Origin: a virus
Lineage: Duplodnaviria; Heunggongvirae; Uroviricota; Caudoviricetes
Virus record (IMG/VR): IMGVR_UViG_2690316099_000011
Length of the DNA stretch: 17,410 nucleotides
Direction: 5' to 3' (one strand)
How positions within the stretch are numbered: the first letter of the stretch is position 1; the number at the start of each line of letters is the position of its first letter. Made by a program: the position numbers and the translations under genes. Shown here in pieces: positions 2,103-17,410 of this stretch. Under the pieces are notes generated by a model. That model saw only the letters and a program-made list of their open reading frames with translations. It did no database searches and was not told where the DNA came from.

Positions 2103-2394
2103 AGATTATGTCGTGCCGATCCTGTCGGCAACGGCCACGGCCGGGGGGATCTTTATGGCGCTGATGCGCAAAACCTTTGTCCCCCGCGAGGCCTTTGAAA
2201 AACTCTCCGACCGGGTTGAGCGGGTGGAGAGCCGGATTTCCGGCCTGCCCACGCAGCAGGAGGTGAACAGACTCAATATCGAAATCACCACCCTGCGCGG
2301 TGAGCTTAAGGCCACCAATGCCACCCTGAAATCCGTCTCCCACCAGAACGAACTGCTGCTGGAGCAGGCTGTAAGGAAAAAACACAATGAGTGA
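2083..2394 (+). CDS. Small membrane protein with N-terminal transmembrane helix and coiled-coil domain; Mu gp25 releasin-like
   Basis: Hydrophobic segment VVPILSATATAGGIFMALM followed by a heptad-like charged region; the start overlaps the stop of the zinc-finger gene; the position is equivalent to Mu gp25. Confidence 0.55.
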   Translation: MWISIVKDYVVPILSATATAGGIFMALMRKTFVPREAFEKLSDRVERVESRISGLPTQQEVNRLNIEITTLRGELKATNATLKSVSHQNELLLEQAVRKKHNE

Positions 2395-2677
2395 TTTCAT
2401 TACTGAAGATCAGCGTCTTGTCATTCTGCGGTCGCTGGCGGATTACAACGGCGAACTGGGCGAATCCGTGCTTCAGGACTGCCTGGATGATTACGGCCAC
2501 CGCGTGTCCCGCGACACCGTGCATACCCATATTGCCTGGCTTGCCGAGCAGGGACTGGTGCGTAAGCGCACGCTTGTTAACGGTTATTTCATCGTTGAAC
2601 TGACCGGCCGGGGTCAGGATGTGGCGGAAGGCCGCGCCACCGTTCCGGGTGTGAAGAAACCACGCGCAAGGGGGTAA
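2387..2677 (+). CDS. Hypothetical 96-aa protein, possibly winged-helix; Mu gp26-position protein
   Basis: ORF with an 8-nt overlap onto the preceding gene; coding-like composition and a basic C-terminus; no recognisable catalytic motif. Confidence 0.55.
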   Translation: MSDFITEDQRLVILRSLADYNGELGESVLQDCLDDYGHRVSRDTVHTHIAWLAEQGLVRKRTLVNGYFIVELTGRGQDVAEGRATVPGVKKPRARG

Positions 2678-2679
2678 CG

Positions 2680-3261
2680 ATGGATAAGCCAACGCGTGGC
2701 CGTGTACGCAAGGTGGATTTGCTCCCCGACAGCATCCGTAAGCCGCTGCTGGAAATGCTGCGTGAAAAACGCCTGACGCAGGTCCAGATCCGCGAGGAAA
2801 TCAACCGCCTGATCCGTGAGGCGGGTCTGCCGGAAGAGCAGCAGCTTTCACCGGCGGCCATCAGCCGGGAGGCCTCCCGTAATGAGCTGATTGCCCGTAA
2901 CCTGCGTGATTTACGCGAGCAGACAAAAGCCATGATGGCCGAACTGGGGGACAAGCCGACCGGTGAAACCACGGCACTGATTCTGGAAATGTCCCGCGCC
3001 CTGATGTACCGCCGTCTGCGTGCTGCCACCGAATCCCTGAACAGCGACAGCGATGTGGATATGCGCCTTATTAAGGACATCCTCCTGTCGGCACAGCGTG
3101 CGGAAAGTGCCGCCGAGCGCAGCATTAAGCGTGAAAAAGAAATCCGGGCCGCATTTGCTGAAGAGATGGCGAACGCCGTCACCGACGAGTTGCGCGGCGT
3201 GGATGGCATGAGCGAGCAGATAGAATTCCGTATCAGGCAGATGCTGCTTGGTAAGGCGTAG
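2680..3261 (+). CDS. Mu gp27-like protein (DUF3486 family), putative terminase small subunit
   Basis: 193-aa charged, helical protein immediately upstream of the terminase large subunit, as for Mu gene 27; start 3 nt after the previous stop. Confidence 0.7.
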   Translation: MDKPTRGRVRKVDLLPDSIRKPLLEMLREKRLTQVQIREEINRLIREAGLPEEQQLSPAAISREASRNELIARNLRDLREQTKAMMAELGDKPTGETTALILEMSRALMYRRLRAATESLNSDSDVDMRLIKDILLSAQRAESAAERSIKREKEIRAAFAEEMANAVTDELRGVDGMSEQIEFRIRQMLLGKA

Positions 3262-3271
3262 GAGGTGAATC

Positions 3272-3520
3272 GTGGTAACAGATAACCGCTCACTGATGAG
3301 TAGTGCTCATCAGAAGGCATTCAGTCTTGCAACACAGTTACCTCCTGAAACCATAAAAGCGTGTCGTGAGTTGACTGAACTCAGCATTGCCGGGGAAATA
3401 TCCCTGGAACAACTGCATTCGCTGCTGGCAGAGGCTGTCACTGATGAGTTGAGTGGCGTGGACGTGATGACTGAAGAGCTTGAGTTCCGAATCAAAAGCA
3501 TTCTGACAGGTAAAGCCTGA
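3272..3520 (+). CDS. Small 82-aa protein whose C-terminus is paralogous to the C-terminus of the gp27-like protein
   Basis: GTG start with GGAGG 6 nt upstream; the C-terminal 30 residues (AEAVTDELSGVDVMTEELEFRIKSILTGKA) align with the end of the upstream gene (ANAVTDELRGVDGMSEQIEFRIRQMLLGKA); its stop overlaps the terminase ATG. Confidence 0.55.
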   Translation: MVTDNRSLMSSAHQKAFSLATQLPPETIKACRELTELSIAGEISLEQLHSLLAEAVTDELSGVDVMTEELEFRIKSILTGKA

Positions 3521-5184
3521 TGAACAAAGCCAAAGAAACGTCTCCTTCACTGATACAAATGACGCCTCCCCGCAAAATTGATCTGTCCGGTGAAAAAGCC
3601 CTGCTGGGCGTGGATGTGCCGGACAGACTTGATTTGCCCGGTGATATGCCGGTGTTTCTGGATTATCAGGCCCGCTGGTTTGAGGATGAAAGTCAGGTCT
3701 GCATTGCGGAAAAATCCCGCCGCACCGGTCTTACCTGGGCGGAAGCCGGGCGTAACGTCATTACTGCTGCAAAACCGAAGCGTCGTGGTGGCCGCAATGT
3801 GTTTTATGTGGGATCAAAGCAGGAGATGGCGCTGGAATATATTTCTGCCTGCGCCCTGTTCTCCCGCGCCTTTAACCAGCTGGCGGATGCTGATGTGTAT
3901 GAGCAGACCTTCTGGGATCGGGATAAAAAAGAAGAAATTCTGACCTACATGATCCGCTTTCCGAACAGTGGATTCAAAATTCAGGCACTGTCTTCCCGTC
4001 CGTCAAACCTGCGCGGCCTTCAGGGGGATGTGGTGATTGATGAAGCCGCGTTCCACGAGTCACTGGATGAGCTTCTCAAGGCGGCAATGGCGCTCACTAT
4101 GTGGGGCGCGCGCGTGCGTATTATCTCCACGCATAACGGCGTCGATAATCTGTTTAATCAGTACATTCAGGAAGCCCGCGAGGGGCGCAAGGATTACAGC
4201 GTCCACCGCATAACCCTGGATGATGCCATTGCGGACGGGCTGTACCGTCGTATCTGTTACGTCACCGATCAGGAATGGTCACCGGAAAGCGAGCAGAAAT
4301 GGCGTGATGATCTCTACAAAAACGCCCCGACCCGTGAGGATGCCGACGAGGAATACGGCTGTATCCCGAAAAAATCCGGCGGTGCCTATATTCCTCACGC
4401 GCTTATTGAAATGGCGATGATCCGCGACATCCCGATTCTGACGTTTGAAGCCCCGGACAACTTCATCAGCCGTGCCGCATGGCTGCGTGAATCGGAAGTT
4501 TTAACCTGGTGTGAAGAACATTTAAAACCGCTTTTAGAGAAATTAAATCCCCGTTCCCGCTTCAGCTTCGGGGAAGACTTTGCCCGCACCGGTGACCTGT
4601 CCTGCTTTGTGCTGCTGGAAATCACCGAATCCCTGGCAAAGCGCGAGGTGTTTCGCGTGGAGCTGCGCAACCTGCCGTATGCCCAGCAGGAACAGGTGAT
4701 GATGTACATCCTGACCCGCGTTCCGGCGCTGGTCGGTGCGGCGTTCGACGCCACCGGTAACGGCGGCTATCTGGCAGAAGCCGCACTGCTGGCCTTTGGC
4801 CCGGACATCATCGACTGCGTGATGTTGTCGCCGAAGTGGTACGGCGAGTGGATGCCAAAACTGAAAGCCGAGTTTGAAGATCAGAATATCCTCGTCGCCC
4901 GCCATCAGACCACGCTTGATGATTTGCGCCATGTGAAGGTGGTGAATGGTATCCCGCAAATCGACAAGGGGCGCACGAAGGACCAGAACGCAACGGCTGC
5001 GAACGCCCGCCGCCATGGTGATTTTGCCGTGGCACTCTGTATGGCAAACCGGGCGTCATACATGGAGGGATTCATCCTGGATGAATCAGCCTGTCAGGCG
5101 CTGCCGGAGCGGTCGCGGGCAATGGAGGGCGGTTATCGTGATGACGATGAGGCATATCATGAATTTGAACGGGGGTGCTGGTAG
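3520..5184 (+). CDS. Terminase large subunit (Mu gp28-like)
   Basis: 554-aa ORF following the gp27-like gene and preceding the portal; acidic-residue motifs consistent with a terminase nuclease/ATPase (VVIDEAAF, a Walker-B-like hhhhDE). Confidence 0.9.
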   Translation: MNKAKETSPSLIQMTPPRKIDLSGEKALLGVDVPDRLDLPGDMPVFLDYQARWFEDESQVCIAEKSRRTGLTWAEAGRNVITAAKPKRRGGRNVFYVGSKQEMALEYISACALFSRAFNQLADADVYEQTFWDRDKKEEILTYMIRFPNSGFKIQALSSRPSNLRGLQGDVVIDEAAFHESLDELLKAAMALTMWGARVRIISTHNGVDNLFNQYIQEAREGRKDYSVHRITLDDAIADGLYRRICYVTDQEWSPESEQKWRDDLYKNAPTREDADEEYGCIPKKSGGAYIPHALIEMAMIRDIPILTFEAPDNFISRAAWLRESEVLTWCEEHLKPLLEKLNPRSRFSFGEDFARTGDLSCFVLLEITESLAKREVFRVELRNLPYAQQEQVMMYILTRVPALVGAAFDATGNGGYLAEAALLAFGPDIIDCVMLSPKWYGEWMPKLKAEFEDQNILVARHQTTLDDLRHVKVVNGIPQIDKGRTKDQNATAANARRHGDFAVALCMANRASYMEGFILDESACQALPERSRAMEGGYRDDDEAYHEFERGCW

Positions 5185-6773
5185 TGGGACGCATAATTGA
5201 TCTTGACGGAAAACCTCTCTCCTTTGACCCGGAGATGCAGAGTACCGCGCTGGATATTCCGCAGATTGCCAGCCGTTATGTTGAGCATCCCGCCTCGGGT
5301 ATCACCCCGAACCGGGCGGCGCAGTGCCTTCGGGGGGCTGAACGTGGCGACCTGATTGCCCAGTCCGATCTGGCGGCTGACATTGAAGAAAAGGACACCC
5401 ACCTTTTTGCGGAGCTGGGCAAGCGACGTCTTGCCATTCAGGGGGTGCCATGGAGTATTGAGCCGCCACCGAACGCCAGCGCGAATGAGAAAAAGGACGC
5501 GGAAATGCTCGACGAATATCTGCATTCCGCAGACTGGTTTGATGCCATGCTGTTTGACGCCACGGATGCCATCCTGAAGGGCTATTCCTGCATGGAAATT
5601 GAGCACGGGATGCTCGGTAAAATGCACATCATCCGCGCCATCCGCTGGCGTGACAGCGGGCATTTCTGCCTTAACCCGGATGATTTGAGCGAACTGCGGC
5701 TGCGTGACGGCAGCCATGCCGGGGTGGCGTTTCAGCCTTTTGGCTGGATAGTGCATCAGTCACGTTCACGGACCGGTTACGGTGGCGCAACGGGGCTTGT
5801 CAGGACGCTTATCTGGCCGTTCATTTTCAAAAACTATTCCGTGCGCGATCTGGCCGAATTTCTGGAGGTGTACGGACTGCCGATGAAGGTCGGGAAATAC
5901 CCGTCCGGGGCAACACCGGAGCAGAAAAGCGCCCTGATGCGGGCGGTGATGGATATCGGGCGACGTACAGGCGGGATCATCCCGGCCGGGATGTCGCTGG
6001 AATTTCAGGCGGCAGCAAACGGTCAGGCCGATCCATTTGAAACCATGATTTCGTGGGGGGAGCGTTCCATCTCCAAAGCAATACTCGGCGGCACGCTGAC
6101 CACGGAAGCCGGAGACAAAGGCGCGCGCTCGCTGGGTGAGGTGCATAACGAGGTGCGCCGGGAAATCAGGGATTCTGATTTACGGCAGCTGGCTGCAACC
6201 CTGAACCGCGATCTGGTGTATCCGCTGTACGCCCTGAACACCACGCACACTATTGATATCCGCCGTCTGCCACGTATCTGCTTCCAGACCAAAGAACCAG
6301 GTGATATCACCAAAATCACCAGTGCGGTGATGCAGCTCAGTACGGGGATGGATATTTCTGATCCCTGGATACGGGAGCAGACCGGTATTCCGCAGCCCAC
6401 GCCCGGTGAAGCCATATTCCGTGTCCGTCAGAGTGGCAATGAACCGGCTCAGACCGACAGGGAAACACCACCGGAAAAACAGGAAAAAACAGAGCAGACG
6501 GCGCTGTCAGCCAGACTGCCGGAAGCGAAAAGCACGCCGCGTGATGAACTGGATGATATGGGGGACGCGGTGCCTGCCCGCCGCTTACAGGAGGCCATCG
6601 ACCCGGTACTGGAGCCGGTCATTGATGCCATCAGAACGCGGGGGCTGGCGGATGCGCTGGCAGACCTGCCTGCCCTTTATCGTGAAATGGATGATTCCCG
6701 CCTGATGACGCTGCTCAGTGATGCCATGTTCGCTGCGGAAATGAAGGGGATGCTGGATGACACAGGGGATTGA
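5175..6773 (+). CDS. Portal protein (Mu gpH/gp29-like, DUF935 family)
   Basis: About 530-aa ORF directly after the terminase with an overlapping start (GTG at 5175 or 5184, after a GGGGG Shine-Dalgarno) and an acidic C-terminal tail; position as in Mu. Confidence 0.88.
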   Translation: MLVVGRIIDLDGKPLSFDPEMQSTALDIPQIASRYVEHPASGITPNRAAQCLRGAERGDLIAQSDLAADIEEKDTHLFAELGKRRLAIQGVPWSIEPPPNASANEKKDAEMLDEYLHSADWFDAMLFDATDAILKGYSCMEIEHGMLGKMHIIRAIRWRDSGHFCLNPDDLSELRLRDGSHAGVAFQPFGWIVHQSRSRTGYGGATGLVRTLIWPFIFKNYSVRDLAEFLEVYGLPMKVGKYPSGATPEQKSALMRAVMDIGRRTGGIIPAGMSLEFQAAANGQADPFETMISWGERSISKAILGGTLTTEAGDKGARSLGEVHNEVRREIRDSDLRQLAATLNRDLVYPLYALNTTHTIDIRRLPRICFQTKEPGDITKITSAVMQLSTGMDISDPWIREQTGIPQPTPGEAIFRVRQSGNEPAQTDRETPPEKQEKTEQTALSARLPEAKSTPRDELDDMGDAVPARRLQEAIDPVLEPVIDAIRTRGLADALADLPALYREMDDSRLMTLLSDAMFAAEMKGMLDDTGD

Positions 6774-8088
6774 TTTAGGTTATGCCGCCACGCTTCCCTC
6801 AAAAGAGGCGGTGGCATACTTCCGCGCCAAAGGGGAGCATATCAGCTGGAACTGGTTCGAAACAGACGCGGATGTTCATGCCCGTTCATTCACGGCGGCA
6901 AAAGTGGCACGCCTGGACGTACTGACCACACTACAGGCGGAAGTGCAGCGTGCTGTTGATGAGGGCATTTCACAGAAAGCATTTATCCGCACGCTGACAC
7001 CCCGCCTGCAAAAGCTGGGATGGTGGGGAAAGCAGATTGTGGTGGACAGTGCAGGGAACGCGGAAGAAGTGCAGCTTGGCAGCCCCCGCCGTCTGGCGCT
7101 GATTTACAACGTGAACACCCGTGTGGCTTACAATGCCGGGCGTTACACGCAGATGATGAACAACACGGACACGCATCCGTTCTGGCAGTATGTGGCGGTG
7201 ATGGACAGCCGCACCCGCCCGGCACATTCCGCCCTTAACGGGCTGGTATTCCGCTATGATGATCCGTTCTGGAATACTCACTACCCGCCCAATGGCTGGA
7301 ACTGTCGCTGCCGTGTGCGGCCATTGTCTCAGGCCCGTCTGGATGCAATGGGGTTATCCGTTTCATCCGGTGAGGATCATCTCTCCACCCGCAATGTTGA
7401 GGCTGGCGTGGATAAACAGACCGGAGAAGTCAGAGAAATGCCGGTGACCACATATTCAGATGGCACCAGAACCATGACACCGGATGTGGGCTGGTCATAT
7501 AACCCCGGCTCGGCAGCGTTCGGCACAGACCAGGCGCTGATCCGCAAACTGATCGAGGTGAAAAGCCCGGCGTTACGGGAAATGGTGGTTCAGGAGATGA
7601 ACAACAGCCCGGAGCGGCAGCTGGCGTTCCGCATCTGGGCAAAAAACATCATGCAGACCCGGCGAGGTGGTAACGATATCCGCACGCTGGGCTTTATGAC
7701 TGAAAGCATTGCGCAGGCAGTGGAAAGCCGGACGGGAACGCCACCGGCCCGCCTGCTGGCGATGAGCGGTAAAAATGTGCTCCATGCAGACAGTGTGAAA
7801 CATCAGAATGACGGCATCGCCCTGATGCCAGAGGACTTCGGGCGCTTACCGGCAATGCTGGCAAAGCCAAAAGCGGTGCTGTGGGACAAACGGCACAACA
7901 ATCTGATGTATATCGTGGAAAATAAGGATGGCAGTGTGCAGATTGCCGTTAATGCACCGTACAGTCTGAAACGTCAGCCCGACAAACTGGATGTGATTGT
8001 GAATGCTTACCGGGTTATCAATATGGATAAGCTGAAATCGGATATCCGGGGCGGAATGCTTGAGGTGCTGGAAGGACAAATTGATTAA
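6757..8088 (+). CDS. Head morphogenesis protein, MuF family (Mu gp30/F-like)
   Basis: 443-aa ORF overlapping the portal stop by 17 nt; central region (RLALIYNVNTRVAYNAGRYTQMM...NGWNCRCRV) matches the MuF/SPP1 gp7 domain pattern as I recall it. Confidence 0.85.
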   Translation: MTQGIDLGYAATLPSKEAVAYFRAKGEHISWNWFETDADVHARSFTAAKVARLDVLTTLQAEVQRAVDEGISQKAFIRTLTPRLQKLGWWGKQIVVDSAGNAEEVQLGSPRRLALIYNVNTRVAYNAGRYTQMMNNTDTHPFWQYVAVMDSRTRPAHSALNGLVFRYDDPFWNTHYPPNGWNCRCRVRPLSQARLDAMGLSVSSGEDHLSTRNVEAGVDKQTGEVREMPVTTYSDGTRTMTPDVGWSYNPGSAAFGTDQALIRKLIEVKSPALREMVVQEMNNSPERQLAFRIWAKNIMQTRRGGNDIRTLGFMTESIAQAVESRTGTPPARLLAMSGKNVLHADSVKHQNDGIALMPEDFGRLPAMLAKPKAVLWDKRHNNLMYIVENKDGSVQIAVNAPYSLKRQPDKLDVIVNAYRVINMDKLKSDIRGGMLEVLEGQID

Positions 8089-8243
8089 CGGTCAGTGGCG
8101 GGGGTCGAACCCNNNNNNNNNNNNNNNNNNNNNNNNNNNNNNNNNNNNNNNNNNNNNNNNNNNNNNNNNNGGCACCGACTTTACCAGTTAAGCGTACACT
8201 GACCGCCTGTTTATTTTATATTCATCTTTTATGCGGAGGCAAT

Positions 8244-8769
8244 ATGTCATCCATTGATGCGGCGGTCGTGGTGGACGTTGCGCGTCTCCAGCGGGTCTTT
8301 GCCCGGCTTCAGNNNNNNNNNNNNNNNNNNNNNNNNNNNNNNNNNNNNNNNNNNNNNNNNNNNNNNNNNNNNNNNNNNNNNNNNNNNNNNNNNNNNNNNN
8401 NNNNNNNNNNNNNNNNNNNNNNNNNNNNNNNNNNNNNNNNNNNNNNNNNNNNNNNNNNNNNNNNNNNNNNNNNNNNNNNNNNNNNNNNNNNNNNNNNNNN
8501 NNNNNNNNNNNNNNNNNNNNNNNNNNNNNNNNNNNNNNNNNNNNNNNNNNNNNNNNNNNNNNNNNNNNNCGGATTATGGCGATACCTGGGCGCTGATTGG
8601 ATCAAATGAACCTTATGCAGCCATTCATCAGTGGGGGGGCCTGCCTGGTATGCCACCGGGACCGGCGGCCATTGGCGCACGTCCGTATATGGGCTTTGAT
8701 CAGGTGGCAGAACAGGAGATCATGGACGAAATCAGAAAACGCTTTAAAAAGGCCACAGAAACGCCGTAA
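8244..8769 (+). CDS. Mu G-like protein (gp31 position), interrupted by an N-run at 8313-8569
   Basis: ATG 8244 with GGAGG 5 nt upstream; N-terminus MSSIDAAVVVDVARLQRVFARLQ and a C-terminal segment ending at TAA 8767-8769 are in different frames across the gap, so the gap length is not exact. Confidence 0.55.
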
Positions 8770-11421: not shown

Positions 11422-11872
11422 ATTACGCCACCGAAACCGATATGCGGGCACGTTACCGCGAGGATTTGCTCAGGCCATTACTGGCCGTGCCCCGTTCGGA
11501 TGAACCGGACACGCGCAAGCTGAACCGGGCACTGACGGACGCGTCTGCCCTTATCGACAGCTATCTGTCTTCCCGTTACACGCTGCCGCTGGCGGTGGTT
11601 CCGGCGGTTCTTGTTCAGCACTGCTGCACGATTGCCTTTTATTACCTGTGCGATCAGCGGGCATCCGATCAGGCGCGTGACCGTTACCGTGAGGCGCTGG
11701 CCTGGCTGAAAGACGTCATGAACGGCAATGTGCCGGTCGGCGTGGATACCGACGGTGCGGCCCCTGNNNNNNNNNNNNNNNNNNNNNNNNNNNNNNNNNN
11801 NNNNNNNNNNATTTACCGCAGGTGCAGTCTGATGCGGCGGTGTTCGGGCGCAACCAGAAGGGCTTTATATGA
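11418..11872 (+). CDS. Mu gp36-like protein (DUF1320 family), interrupted by an N-run at 11767-11810
   Basis: N-terminal 116 aa in a clear ORF; C-terminal segment ...VFGRNQKGFI* ends at TGA 11870-11872 overlapping the next ATG; the frame differs across the N-run. Confidence 0.6.
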
Positions 11873-11881: not shown

Positions 11882-12877
11882 CCGAACAGGCNNNNNNNNN
11901 NNNNNNNNNNNNNNNNNNNNNNNNNNNNNNNNNNNNNNNNNNNNNNNNNNNNNNNNNNNNNNNNNNNNNNNNNNNNNNNNNNNNNNNNNNNNNNNNNNNN
12001 NNNNNNNNNNNNNNNNNNNNNNNNNNNNNNNNNNNNNNNNNNNNNNNNNNNNNNNNNNNNNNNNNNNNNNNNNNNNNNNNNNNNNNNNNNNNNNNNNNNN
12101 NNNNNNNNNNNNNNNNNNNNNNNNNNNNNNNNNNNNNNNNNNNNNNNNNNNNNNNNNNNNNNNNNNNNNNNNNNNNNNNNNNNNNNNNNNNNNNNNNNNN
12201 NNNNNNNNNNNNNNNNNNNNNNNNNNNNNNNNNNNNNNNNNNNNNNNNNNNNNNNNNNNNNNNNNNNNNNNNNNNNNNNNNNNNNNNNNNNNNNNNNNNN
12301 NNNNNNNNNNNNNNNNNNNNNNNNNNNNNNNNNNNNNNNNNNNNNNNNNNNNNNNNNNNNNNNNNNNNNNNNNNNNNNNNNNNNNNNNNNNNNNNNNNNN
12401 NNNNNNNNNNNNNNNNNNNNNNNNNNNNNNNNNNNNNNNNNNNNNNNNNNNNNNNNNNNNNNNNNNNNNNNNNNNNNNNNNNNNNNNNNNNNNNNNNNNN
12501 NNNNNNNNNNNNNNNNNNNNNNNNNNNNNNNNNNNNNNNNNNNNNNNNNNNNNNNNNNNNNNNNNNNNNNNNNNNNNNNNNNNNNNNNNNNNNNNNNNNN
12601 NNNNNNNNNNNNNNNNNNNNNNNNNNNNNNNNNNNNNNNNNNNNNNNNNNNNNNNNNNNNNNNNNNNNNNNNNNNNNNNNNNNNNNNNNNNNNNNNNNNN
12701 NNNNNNNNNNNNNNNNNNNNNNNNNNNNNNNNNNNNNNNNNNNNNNNNNNNNNNNNNNNNNNNNNNNNNNNNNNNNNNNNNNNNNNNNNNNNNNNNNNNN
12801 NNNNNNNNNNNNNNNNNNNNNNNNNNNNNNNNNNNNNNNNNNNNNNNNNNNNNNNNNNNNNNNNNNNNNNNNNNNCG

Positions 12878-12949: not shown

Positions 12950-14585
12950 TGATTAACTTTGATTATATCGGCGATAACAATCGCATTCCGCTGGTACAGA
13001 TTGAAATCAATAATTCAATGGCCGTGACCGGCACTCCACCACAGCGTCAGGCGGTACTGTTGTTTGGTCAGGCTGCAATGAAAGACACCACCATTCAGGG
13101 GCGCGGTCAGCTTGATGTACCAGTACGTATTACCCGAGCTTCACAAGCAAGAGAACTCTGGGGGCGAGGTTCCATGATTGCACTGATGGTAGAGGAATTT
13201 ATCGCCATTAACCCTGACACAGAGTTATATGCCATTGCACAGGGGGCTGGAACAGGTCAGTCCAGGGCATGCGTGATGAATATCATTGGAACAGCATTGG
13301 CAGACGGGGTGTTAAGTGTTTACATCGGCGGTCGCCGTTACCTCCTGCCCGTCAGTAAGGGGAAAAAAGGTAAAGAGCTTGTGGAAGAGCTGGCTAAGGT
13401 CATTAACGCTGACACTGATGCGCCATTCACTGCTATCGCAGCTGAAGTCAGTGGTGATAATGCTGAAGGACTTAAAGGGAGCATGGGGGTTAACGCCCGC
13501 TTTATCGGTGAATGCTCAGCTCATGATTTACGGGTGAACTATTATGACGGTGAAACTACACCGGCCGGTCTTACGCTGGAGCTCGTCGCGCCAACACAGA
13601 AGGCAACAAACCCCGATATCACCCGTAGCGTCTCAGGGATGGGGAATCGTCAGTACAACTACATCGTCATGCCCTATAAGGATGCGGCAAATCTCAAAAT
13701 TCTGGCGGATGAACTGCTGAAACGCTGGGGACCGGTAAAAATGTCGGACGGTATGGTCTGGATGGCGCATACCGGCACCTTCGGTACGGCAACCAGTTTT
13801 GGTGAATCCCGTAATGACTTCCTGTTTACCTGCACTTCTATTCCTAAAGCACCAGAGCCGGATTATGTCTGGGCGGCCTCCATTTNNNNNNNNNNNNNNN
13901 NNNNNNNNNNNNNNNNNNNNNNNNNNNNNNNNNNNNNNNNNNNNNNNNNNNNNNNNNNNNNNNNNNNNNNNNNNNNNNNNNNNNNNNNNNNNNNNNNNNN
14001 NNNNNNNNNNNNNNNNNNNNNNNNNNNNNNGCGCCCTCCCTGTCAACGGATCCGGCCCGACCATTACAGACACTGGCGCTGCCTGCCCGTATGGCACCTG
14101 AAGCACCGGCTCGTCTGACGCGGGAAGAGCGAAACAGCCTGCTTTATACCGGCATGTCCACGGTGACCGTTGCGGCCGCTGATGTGGTGCAGATTGAACG
14201 TCAGGTGACGATGTACCGTCAGAATGCATACGGCGAAAGCGATCCCAGCTATCTGGATGTAGAAACCATCTACACCCTGTCATATCTGCGTTATTCCCTG
14301 CGCACCTTTATCACGCAGCGTTTCCCGCGCCACAAACTGGCCGATAACGGTACTCCCGTCCGGCCCGGTCAGAATATCGTGACGCCGGAGATTATGACGC
14401 TCCAGCTGATTGCACTGGGGGAAGAATGGGTGGAACTCGGGCTGGTCGAAAATCTGGACACCTTTAAAAAGAATCTGCTCGTGGAGCGCAACACAAAAGA
14501 CCGTAACCGTCTGGATGTGATGTGTACACCGGATCTGGTTAACCAGTTCCGCTTCATGGCCGCGCAGATCCGTTTCATTTTGTGA
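12949..14585 (+). CDS. Contractile tail sheath protein (Mu gpL/gp39-like), interrupted by an N-run at 13886-14030
   Basis: About 300-aa N-terminal part plus a 164-aa C-terminal part ending at 14585, directly upstream of the tail tube gene; size and position fit a sheath protein; the frame differs across the gap. Confidence 0.7.
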
Positions 14586-15893: not shown

Positions 15894-17410
15894 NNNNNNN
15901 NNNNNNNNNNNNNNNNNNNNNNNNNNNNNNNNNNNNNNNNNNNNNNNNNNNNNNNNNNNNNNNNNNNNNNNNNNNNNNNNNNNNNNNNNNNNNNNNNNNN
16001 NNNNNNNNNNNNNNNNNNNNNNNNNNNNNNNNNNNNNNNNNNNNNNNNNNNNNNNNNNNNNNNNNNNNNNNNNNNNNNNNNNNNNNNNNNNNNNNNNNNN
16101 NNNNNNNNNNNNNNNNNNNNNNNNNNNNNNNNNNNNNNNNNNNNNNNNNNNNNNNNNNNNNNNNNNNNNNNNNNNNNNNNNNNNNNNNNNNNNNNNNNNN
16201 NNNNNNNNNNNNNNNNNNNNNNNNNNNNNNNNNNNNNNNNNNNNNNNNNNNNNNNNNNNNNNNNNNNNNNNNNNNNNNNNNNNNNNNNNNNNNNNNNNNN
16301 NNNNNNNNNNNNNNNNNNNNNNNNNNNNNNNNNNNNNNNNNNNNNNNNNNNNNNNNNNNNNNNNNNNNNNNNNNNNNNNNNNNNNNNNNNNNNNNNNNNN
16401 NNNNNNNNNNNNNNNNNNNNNNNNNNNNNNNNNNNNNNNNNNNNNNNNNNNNNNNNNNNNNNNNNNNNNNNNNNNNNNNNNNNNNNNNNNNNNNNNNNNN
16501 NNNNNNNNNNNNNNNNNNNNNNNNNNNNNNNNNNNNNNNNNNNNNNNNNNNNNNNNNNNNNNNNNNNNNNNNNNNNNNNNNNNNNNNNNNNNNNNNNNNN
16601 NNNNNNNNNNNNNNNNNNNNNNNNNNNNNNNNNNNNNNNNNNNNNNNNNNNNNNNNNNNNNNNNNNNNNNNNNNNNNNNNNNNNNNNNNNNNNNNNNNNN
16701 NNNNNNNNNNNNNNNNNNNNNNNNNNNNNNNNNNNNNNNNNNNNNNNNNNNNNNNNNNNNNNNNNNNNNNNNNNNNNNNNNNNNNNNNNNNNNNNNNNNN
16801 NNNNNNNNNNNNNNNNNNNNNNNNNNNNNNNNNNNNNNNNNNNNNNNNNNNNNNNNNNNNNNNNNNNNNNNNNNNNNNNNNNNNNNNNNNNNNNNNNNNN
16901 NNNNNNNNNNNNNNNNNNNNNNNNNNNNNNNNNNNNNNNNNNNNNNNNNNNNNNNNNNNNNNNNNNNNNNNNNNNNNNNNNNNNNNNNNNNNNNNNNNNN
17001 NNNNNNNNNNNNNNNNNNNNNNNNNNNNNNNNNNNNNNNNNNNNNNNNNNNNNNNNNNNNNNNNNNNNNNNNNNNNNNNNNNNNNNNNNNNNNNNNNNNN
17101 NNNNNNNNNNNNNNNNNNNNNNNNNNNNNNNNNNNNNNNNNNNNNNNNNNNNNNNNNNNNNNNNNNNNNNNNNNNNNNNNNNNNNNNNNNNNNNNNNNNN
17201 NNNNNNNNNNNNNNNNNNNNNNNNNNNNNNNNNNNNNNNNNNNNNNNNNNNNNNNNNNNNNNNNNNNNNNNNNNNNNNNNNNNNNNNNNNNNNNNNNNNN
17301 NNNNNNNNNNNNNNNNNNNNNNNNNNNNNNNNNNNNNNNNNNNNNNNNNNNNNNNNNNNNNNNNNNNNNNNNNNNNNNNNNNNNNNNNNNNNNNNNNNNN
17401 CGGGGTGTCA

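Follow-up and report, generated by a model that had tools for sequence, protein, structure and literature searches.

A small open reading frame between the gp27 and large terminase genes of an Escherichia coli Mu-like prophage is probably a mosaic-joint chimera that ends in a relic gp27 tail

In phage Mu, the gene encoding gp27 is followed, after a 7-nt gap, by the gene encoding gp28, the large terminase. In the prophage studied here, an additional open reading frame of 82 codons (ORF82) lies between the corresponding two genes, and its 3' end repeats the 3' end of the gp27 gene. Why does a phage carry a second copy of this tail directly in front of its large terminase gene? Does the small gene encode a packaging factor, or is it a by-product of recombination? 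The window, by which we mean the whole 17,410-nt stretch of DNA analyzed, is the late region of an E. coli Mu-like prophage, and its junction stretch (positions 2387 to 3700) was 100% identical to strain JKHS016 by megablast. Its relatives include Mu-like prophages of O157:H7 strains and Mu-like elements inside some Stx phages. Among the O157:H7 Mu-like prophages, Sp18 of O157 Sakai is a described example (PMC2669165).

The window encodes, in order, a Mor-like protein (205 to 627), a lysozyme (699 to 1199), a TraR/DksA-like protein (1809 to 2102), a DUF2730 protein that is Mu gp25-like (2083 to 2394), and a winged-helix protein that is gp26-like (2387 to 2677). These are followed by the gp27-family gene (Mu D, putative small terminase; 193 aa; 2680 to 3261, + strand), ORF82 (82 codons; 3272 to 3520, + strand), the large terminase gene (TerL, Mu gp28-like; 554 aa; 3520 to 5184, + strand), a portal gene (5175 to 6773), and a Mu F-like gene (6757 to 8088). 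The gp27 of the window was 57% identical to Mu gp27 and matched Pfam PF11985 (E 3e-33 over residues 12 to 193) and PHROG 426, "terminase small subunit" (E 9e-55); against PDB sequences, its best match was not below E 0.35. TerL is labeled "hypothetical protein" in RefSeq (PGAP) and had no Pfam-A match at E ≤ 1, and it was identified through PHROG 2, "terminase large subunit" (E 2e-43). Six runs of masked N bases, 2,995 bases in total (8113 to 8170, 8313 to 8569, 11767 to 11810, 11892 to 12875, 13886 to 14030, and 15894 to 17400), make the ORF lists and composition unreliable in those stretches. A 243-codon antisense ORF (2589 to 3320, - strand) overlaps gp27 and the first part of ORF82; because polymorphic sites in gp27, read on the + strand, fall overwhelmingly at third codon positions (4/3/55 at positions 1/2/3), our data suggest that it is a shadow ORF. 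We also observed, in a Logan contig, a 291-aa protein (P0013) in which a winged-helix (gp26-like) protein is fused to gp27 through the 2-codon gap (compare 2387 to 3261 of the window); the stop codon was presumably lost in that copy.

The first-pass annotation had described an 82-aa gene with a GTG start and a strong Shine-Dalgarno sequence between the gp27-like gene and TerL, and direct reading of the sequence bore this out. The GTG of ORF82 is at 3272, with its first base 10 nt past the gp27 stop. The Shine-Dalgarno sequence AGGAGG (3260 to 3265, + strand) overlaps the TAG stop of gp27 (3259 to 3261) and lies 6 nt before the GTG. At the other end, the ORF82 stop and the TerL start overlap in the sequence TGATG (3518 to 3522, + strand), in which TGA (3518 to 3520) and ATG (3520 to 3522) have A3520 in common. 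In all loci that carry ORF82 (long form), the Shine-Dalgarno sequence was GGAGG or GGGGG and the TGATG (or ATGATG) overlap was present; the same TGATG joins gp27 directly to TerL in loci without ORF82 (short form). The start codon among ten alleles was ATG in most, with GTG in the window and in four of ten. Because of its strong Shine-Dalgarno sequence and because it abuts gp27, ORF82 is probably translated in the late operon.

Searches for a known function of ORF82 returned little. The protein is annotated as "hypothetical protein" (PGAP) and matched PHROG 30922, function unknown, with E 1e-55 over residues 1 to 82; no Pfam family matched even at E ≤ 1, and with respect to defense and anti-defense we found no PADLOC, Pfam, or informative PHROG match. 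Two database entries, P0008 (truncated) and P0009, are 49 aa long. The AF2 model of ORF82, which is of low confidence (pLDDT 64), has helices at residues 5 to 22, 25 to 39, and 45 to 59 and, beyond them, a loop and a terminal helix; a Foldseek comparison of this model with PDB folds returned nothing at E ≤ 0.001. Simple consensus scans found no sigma-70-like promoter in 2600 to 3800 and three terminator-like sites, all outside ORF82. The ORF82 region had no Rfam match. A hairpin with a 9-bp stem (CUGAUGAGU/GCUCAUCAG) was seen at 3293 to 3313, inside the 5' part of ORF82. In a diverged allele (L002), a 7-bp hairpin of different sequence (GGGCGCU/AGCGCCC) was seen at about 4017 to 4037, the same position relative to the gene. 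The 81-nt folds of these two hairpins gave z values of about -2.3 and -2.6, and the hairpin was weak or absent in L003 and L005; the match in position may be coincidence. Our literature search found no paper on ORF82, on its common tail with gp27, or on the Mu gp27 tail.

How closely does ORF82 resemble gp27? The last 31 codons of gp27 with the stop (MANAVTDELRGVDGMSEQIEFRIRQMLLGKA; 3166 to 3261, + strand) and codons 52 to 82 of ORF82 with the stop (LAEAVTDELSGVDVMTEELEFRIKSILTGKA; 3425 to 3520, + strand) are two copies of one tail module, the first delimited by BLASTP and DNA alignment and the second by BLASTP and hhalign. By BLASTP, gp27 residues 163 to 193 and ORF82 residues 52 to 82 aligned without gaps, with 20/31 identical (65%) and 26/31 positive residues (E 1e-12); formal alignment was thus significant for the match that the first-pass annotation had proposed for the last 30 or so residues. 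The relatedness that it had noted at the nucleotide level held as well, with 62 of 93 bases the same in an ungapped alignment of 3166 to 3258 with 3425 to 3517 (an offset of 259 nt) versus 43/93 for the second-best ungapped alignment across the whole window. In profile comparisons, gp27 residues 162 to 193 matched positions 51 to 82 of the phrog_30922 profile (E 6e-8), and family-versus-family hhalign paired ORF82 residues 49 to 82 with gp27 residues 160 to 193 only (96% probability). Both tails end in GKA. The AF2 model of gp27, also of low confidence (pLDDT 54), places the end of a long helix, a loop (172 to 178), and a helix (179 to 189) in the common module.

The likeness is limited to about 31 to 34 residues; the first ∼50 residues of ORF82 are unlike gp27. 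ORF82 is not a member of the gp27/PF11985 small terminase family, since the tail alone matches and the N-terminal HTH and long central helices are absent. Between Mu and the lineage of the window, few parts of gp27 are as well conserved as the tail. Every ORF82 allele nevertheless carries R172S, G176V, and L189T (gp27 numbering), which replace positions invariant in 11 aligned gp27 sequences; R172 and L189 are also common to Mu. Allele L002 additionally has a leucine-to-proline change in the terminal helix of ORF82.

If the tail comes from gp27, where does the rest of ORF82 come from? Codons 1 to 55 (3272 to 3436, + strand), which we call the N-module, are homologous to ORFs of 65 to 69 aa that lie 10 nt 3' of gp27 in other prophages and that have no gp27 tail. 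When 1.84 billion representative proteins were searched with HMMER using a profile built from ORF82 alleles, five matches were obtained: members of this prophage lineage and P0132, a protein of 67 aa in which residues 1 to 60 matched profile positions 1 to 56 (E 1e-10) and which ends differently, without the gp27 tail. The N-module was also related to a 69-aa ORF of Salmonella prophages (hhalign, 95% probability, E 4e-8; homology over ORF82 residues 3 to 52), and the Salmonella small ORF matched P0132 by BLASTP (E 5e-9). The tail-less relatives matched the N-module of PHROG 30922 at E 3e-14 to 5e-5. No ORF82 match was found among GTDB species representatives. The same 10-nt spacing between gp27 and the small ORF, on the same strand and upstream of TerL, was found in the window (3261 to 3272), in L002 to L009, in L013 to L016, and in L020 to L023. 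By both profile and position, ORF82 is a member of the PHROG 30922 small-ORF family. Because the homologues of the N-module have no gp27 tail, ORF82 is a chimera of a small accessory-ORF N-module (codons 1 to about 55) and a gp27 tail (codons about 52 to 82). We considered whether ORF82 could instead be the C-terminal fragment of a diverged full-length gp27, and we rejected this, as profile-profile comparison aligned the tail only and the N-module has tail-less homologues.

How common is this arrangement? When the stretch from 2387 to 3700 was searched by megablast against 5,426 complete E. coli genomes, 232 records matched. Most of them gave a two-piece match, with 1055 record bases against the 1314-base query (85 to 87% covered). 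Alignment with a short-form (S-type) locus, L001, showed that exactly 259 bp are missing there and that a 193-aa gp27 overlaps TerL by TGATG. The missing segment can be placed at 3218 to 3476; the placement inside the repeat is arbitrary and equivalent to 3262 to 3520. With the 259-bp block as the query, the full ORF was present in 24 of the 208 matching complete E. coli genomes, and in the other 184 records only the 3' end of their own gp27 matched the ORF82 tail, at 75 to 79%. About 88% of the related complete E. coli genomes are thus without ORF82. A common Salmonella relative is also S-type, with gp27 overlapping TerL and no ORF82, and no INPHARED phage record carried the full ORF82. The first-pass annotation had taken the gene to be extra relative to Mu, which is correct, and comparison of the gp27-gp28 junctions of other Mu-like prophages agreed with it: ORF82 is a minority form and is uncharacterized ("hypothetical protein," PHROG 30922).

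A third junction form (X-type) was found in a near-identical prophage, L009, which is the locus of P0132. There, the gp27 tail has the same amino acid sequence as that of the window (QIEFRIRQMLLGKA, 3' half), followed by the same AGGAGGTGAATC and then by the 67-aa ORF. Past this ORF lies an A+T-rich spacer of ∼120 bp with a 39-codon antisense ORF (5181 to 5300, - strand), and then TerL with a different N terminus. In Salmonella prophages L020, L021, and L023, a 69-aa ORF begins 10 nt past gp27 and is followed by an antisense ORF of 72 aa (42 aa in L023) and a spacer, and then by TerL; the antisense ORF lies between the small ORF and TerL at 3429 to 3647 in L021 and at 3428 to 3556 in L023 (both - strand). 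In L022, the small ORF is 65 aa long. The antisense cassette ORFs, which are convergent with the late operon and in L009 have a good Shine-Dalgarno sequence (GGAGAG), had no Pfam, PHROG, or PADLOC match; they may be morons expressed in the lysogen. In annotation, the gp27-TerL junction can be treated as a slot for cassettes, of which we saw at least three states: no insert, the 259-bp block, or a forward ORF paired with an antisense ORF.

Which gp27 does the ORF82 tail resemble most? The DNA of the tail (last 96 nt of ORF82) was 78% identical to the gp27 tail of E. coli S-type (cassette-free) loci versus 66% to the adjacent gp27 tail, and each half of the tail, compared separately, gave this ranking. 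The gp27 tail next to ORF82 has the X-type amino acid sequence. The backbones of the S, X, and L (long) forms were mostly 93 to 99% identical on both sides; junction divergence was confined to about 3200 to 3575, and the G+C content fell from about 0.59 to 0.49 over the same stretch. Presence or absence between close relatives and a shift in composition, both expected of a moron or accessory cassette, were therefore found here; a promoter and terminator of its own, also expected, were not found by the simple consensus scans. A second mosaic patch was seen at 2183 to 2380, in the DUF2730 gene, with 75 to 81% identity to the S- and X-type sequences in a surrounding backbone of 89 to 97%.

The short form is unlikely to be a recent deletion of the long form that we sampled. 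The 3' half of the tail and the TerL start differ by about 20 to 26% between the two forms versus about 5% in the backbone. On our reading of the alignment, the longest exact run common to the two tail copies of the window does not exceed about 8 nt, and deletion by homologous recombination would be inefficient over so short a run. A search for a donor, a gp27 with the ORF82-specific tail VDVMTEELE, returned only the same long-form loci from IMG/VR and three unrelated chance matches from GTDB genomes. Either these collections do not include the donor, or the tail has changed since the fusion. Because no such donor was found, we infer the recombination partners rather than observe them.

Taken together, the best explanation that we can offer, and one that we consider reasonably probable, is that the tail of ORF82 is a remnant of the 3' end of gp27 in the recipient, carried along with the TerL initiation context, that the protein is dispensable, and that ORF82 is a near-neutral by-product of mosaic recombination. 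Some enterobacterial Mu-like prophages carry an accessory cassette in the gp27-TerL slot, a 65- to 69-aa ORF usually accompanied by the antisense ORF and spacer. Illegitimate recombination would have joined a cassette-bearing prophage on the left to a cassette-free prophage on the right. From the left would have come gp27, complete with its tail, along with the AGGAGG and some 55 codons of the small ORF; from the right would have come the last ∼27 to 31 codons of the cassette-free phage's gp27 together with its TerL, with the TGATG overlap retained. The join would have preserved the reading frame and fallen where the two sequences are briefly alike (CTGGCAGAGGCT versus ATGGCAAACGCC). The outcome at the locus is an extra block of 259 bp whose 3' end repeats the gp27 tail. 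Translation of ORF82 may then deliver ribosomes to the TerL start, and the duplicated tail would have been kept for the TerL initiation context and not for the need of a second TerL-binding tail; the ORF82 protein itself would be under little or no constraint and dispensable for the phage. Coupling between ORF82 and TerL is plausible and is not required by this explanation. In the X-type and Salmonella cassette loci, TerL stands behind a spacer and is not coupled, which indicates that coupling is not obligatory for TerL expression.

Is the ORF82 protein under selection? The sample is small, ten distinct DNA alleles from 20 loci. The 82-codon frame was intact and without indels in 10/10 alleles and 20/20 loci, and the start codon, the Shine-Dalgarno sequence, and the stop/start overlap with TerL were kept in 10/10 alleles. 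That no allele has an indel and that the start signals persist suggests, weakly, that the frame is maintained to some degree, and the protein may be as well. Pairwise dN/dS was 0.45 to 0.88 for ORF82 versus 0.02 to 0.05 for gp27, 0.05 to 0.10 for TerL, and 0.03 to 0.08 for the winged-helix gene, and ORF82 evolved about ten times faster than gp27. Polymorphic sites at codon positions 1/2/3 numbered 14/16/20 in ORF82 and 4/5/6, with no codon-position bias, in its tail alone. For TerL, the corresponding counts were 1/4/4 in codons 1 to 17 and 11/8/74 in codons 18 to 400. To obtain a neutral expectation, each of the 53 observed changes was moved to a randomly chosen site that had the same original base. 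Nonsynonymous changes made up 35/53 of the observed changes, versus 37.9 ± 3.1 expected (fraction at or below the observed value, 0.21), and all alleles stayed free of stops in 16% of the relocation trials (a chance of about 0.16). On the relocation test and the codon-position counts, the long-form ORF82 is indistinguishable from unconstrained sequence. Neither purifying selection on the tail nor retention of the gp27-invariant residues was seen among the ten alleles. As a point against full neutrality, one residue, R6, was kept in a diverged 5' block through a three-base codon change (CGC to AGG). The evidence points to near-neutral drift of ORF82. Separately, TerL codons 1 to 17 (3520 to 3570) were seen to be hypervariable; they differ among the S, L, X, and Salmonella forms, and the protein is conserved from PPRKIDL on.

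The main rival to the reading of ORF82 as a recombination scar is a function in the N-module, and we regard it as a possible but distinctly less likely explanation. In this reading, ORF82 would be a moron-like accessory protein whose three-helix N-module has a fast-evolving job of its own (e.g., host or phage interference), and the gp27 tail would be incidental in the E. coli variant. In both E. coli and Salmonella prophages, the small-ORF family keeps to a single site, its frames are intact, it has a Shine-Dalgarno sequence of its own, and its G+C content is below that of the flanks. Between lineages, the family gave dN/dS values of 0.35 to 0.85, below 1, and it is still recognizable from E. 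coli to Salmonella when gp27 dS is above 1.3 (saturated). Such persistence means that purifying selection, if only weak, has acted on the N-module in the past, and the N-module may therefore have a function. The cassette is also moving independently of the backbone, as L021 and L023 differ by a dS of 0.18 in the small ORF versus 1.28 in gp27. Against these points, the substitutions among the 82-aa alleles are indistinguishable from neutral; the gene is rare and restricted, with the five matches among 1.84 billion representatives and none among the GTDB species representatives; and it had neither a match in Pfam, PADLOC, or PDB folds nor a promoter or terminator of its own in our scans.

A different possibility, put forward in the first-pass annotation, is that the captured gp27 tail is a putative TerL-binding peptide and that ORF82 competes with or adapts the small terminase and so modulates packaging. 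In lambda, T4, P22, and SPP1, the small terminase binds the large subunit through its C-terminal region. By analogy, the conservation of the gp27 tail from Mu to this lineage, the retention in ORF82 of about 20/31 tail residues and of the predicted helix-loop-helix shape (in low-confidence models), and the placement and presumed coexpression of ORF82 between the two terminase genes would all fit such a role. We know of no demonstration that the Mu gp27 tail takes part in TerL binding. The unbiased tail polymorphism argues against the competitor or adaptor role, as do the replaced gp27-invariant positions and the helix-breaking proline in one allele. The same gp27 tail also occurs with two different TerL N termini (L and X types), so no tight pairing of the tail with the TerL N terminus is visible, and the gene is missing from Mu and from most of the related complete E. 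coli genomes. Since what speaks for this role is resemblance, we consider it weakly disfavored and, taken as an explanation of the locus, improbable. A more ambitious version of domain capture is that a mobile small protein docks on TerL (or on gp27 oligomers) via the tail and tunes or redirects headful packaging, with its fast evolution reflecting an arms race and not drift; this we think quite doubtful. If the tail does bind TerL, the presence/absence pair of prophages would be a ready-made experiment on the contact between the Mu small and large terminases, which to our knowledge has not been mapped.

Could ORF82 be an untranslated, noncoding spacer that is open by chance? The neutral-looking substitution pattern is what such a spacer would give. 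The AGGAGG at ideal spacing, the ATG or GTG start, and the exact 82-codon frame onto the TerL start in all alleles are not, and the region had no RNA family match and no consistent structure; we consider this reading very unlikely. Least credible of all is a local tandem duplication of the neighboring gp27 3' end that is now decaying, which we rejected even with two direct tail copies 259 nt apart and an indel length equal to the repeat offset: residues 1 to 50 of ORF82 do not align with gp27, with no likeness outside the tail, and are homologous to a separate ORF family, and the tail is nearer to another gp27 allele than to the adjacent one. The first-pass annotation had raised a "decaying tandem duplication," and of this the decay agrees with the near-neutral evolution of ORF82, whereas an origin by tandem duplication of the adjacent gp27 does not agree with an N-terminal two-thirds that comes from an unrelated family.

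How does ORF82 compare with known systems? It resembles the Mu gp27 (gene D) family, PF11985/PHROG 426, in its last ∼31 residues (helix end, loop, and terminal helix) and in its TGATG-type junction with TerL, and it differs from that family in lacking the N-terminal HTH and long central helices and in having several gp27-invariant tail positions changed. With the rest of PHROG 30922 and the tail-less ORFs (P0132 and P0134 to P0137), it shares residues 1 to 55, the start 10 nt after gp27, the overlapping Shine-Dalgarno sequence, fast evolution, and a patchy distribution. The tail-less ORFs have other ends, followed by an antisense ORF and a spacer, and only the E. coli 82-aa form has the gp27 tail and abuts TerL. 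The packaging hijackers SaPI Ppi and TerS(SP) and PICI Rpp, which target terminase subunits, are satellite encoded and under selection, and their binding has been demonstrated. They are, like ORF82, small proteins encoded beside, or acting on, terminase subunits; in contrast to them, ORF82 is phage encoded, and it has no sequence relationship to them.

The closest parallel is with phage mosaicism of the type described by Hendrix, in which illegitimate recombination leaves mosaic-joint scars and partial gene duplications and in which morons are inserted in late operons. ORF82 shares with such scars and morons a sharply local divergence in a 93 to 99% identical backbone, presence or absence among relatives, a different G+C content, and, at the joint, a leftover piece of a neighboring gene. 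Classical morons have their own promoter and terminator, and none was found for ORF82; compared with ordinary scars, the ORF82 fragment is fused in frame to another ORF and the downstream start overlap is kept. The locus is in this respect a clean natural example of an in-frame illegitimate-recombination fusion that preserves a downstream start context. For annotation, the "hypothetical protein" between gp27 and TerL can be replaced by a chimeric ORF composed of an accessory N-module and a relic gp27 tail. ORF82 is probably an ordinary by-product of a mosaic joint and not a new packaging factor. Rather than being a new kind of system, it belongs with the well-known mosaic joints and accessory-cassette slots that temperate phage genomes carry.
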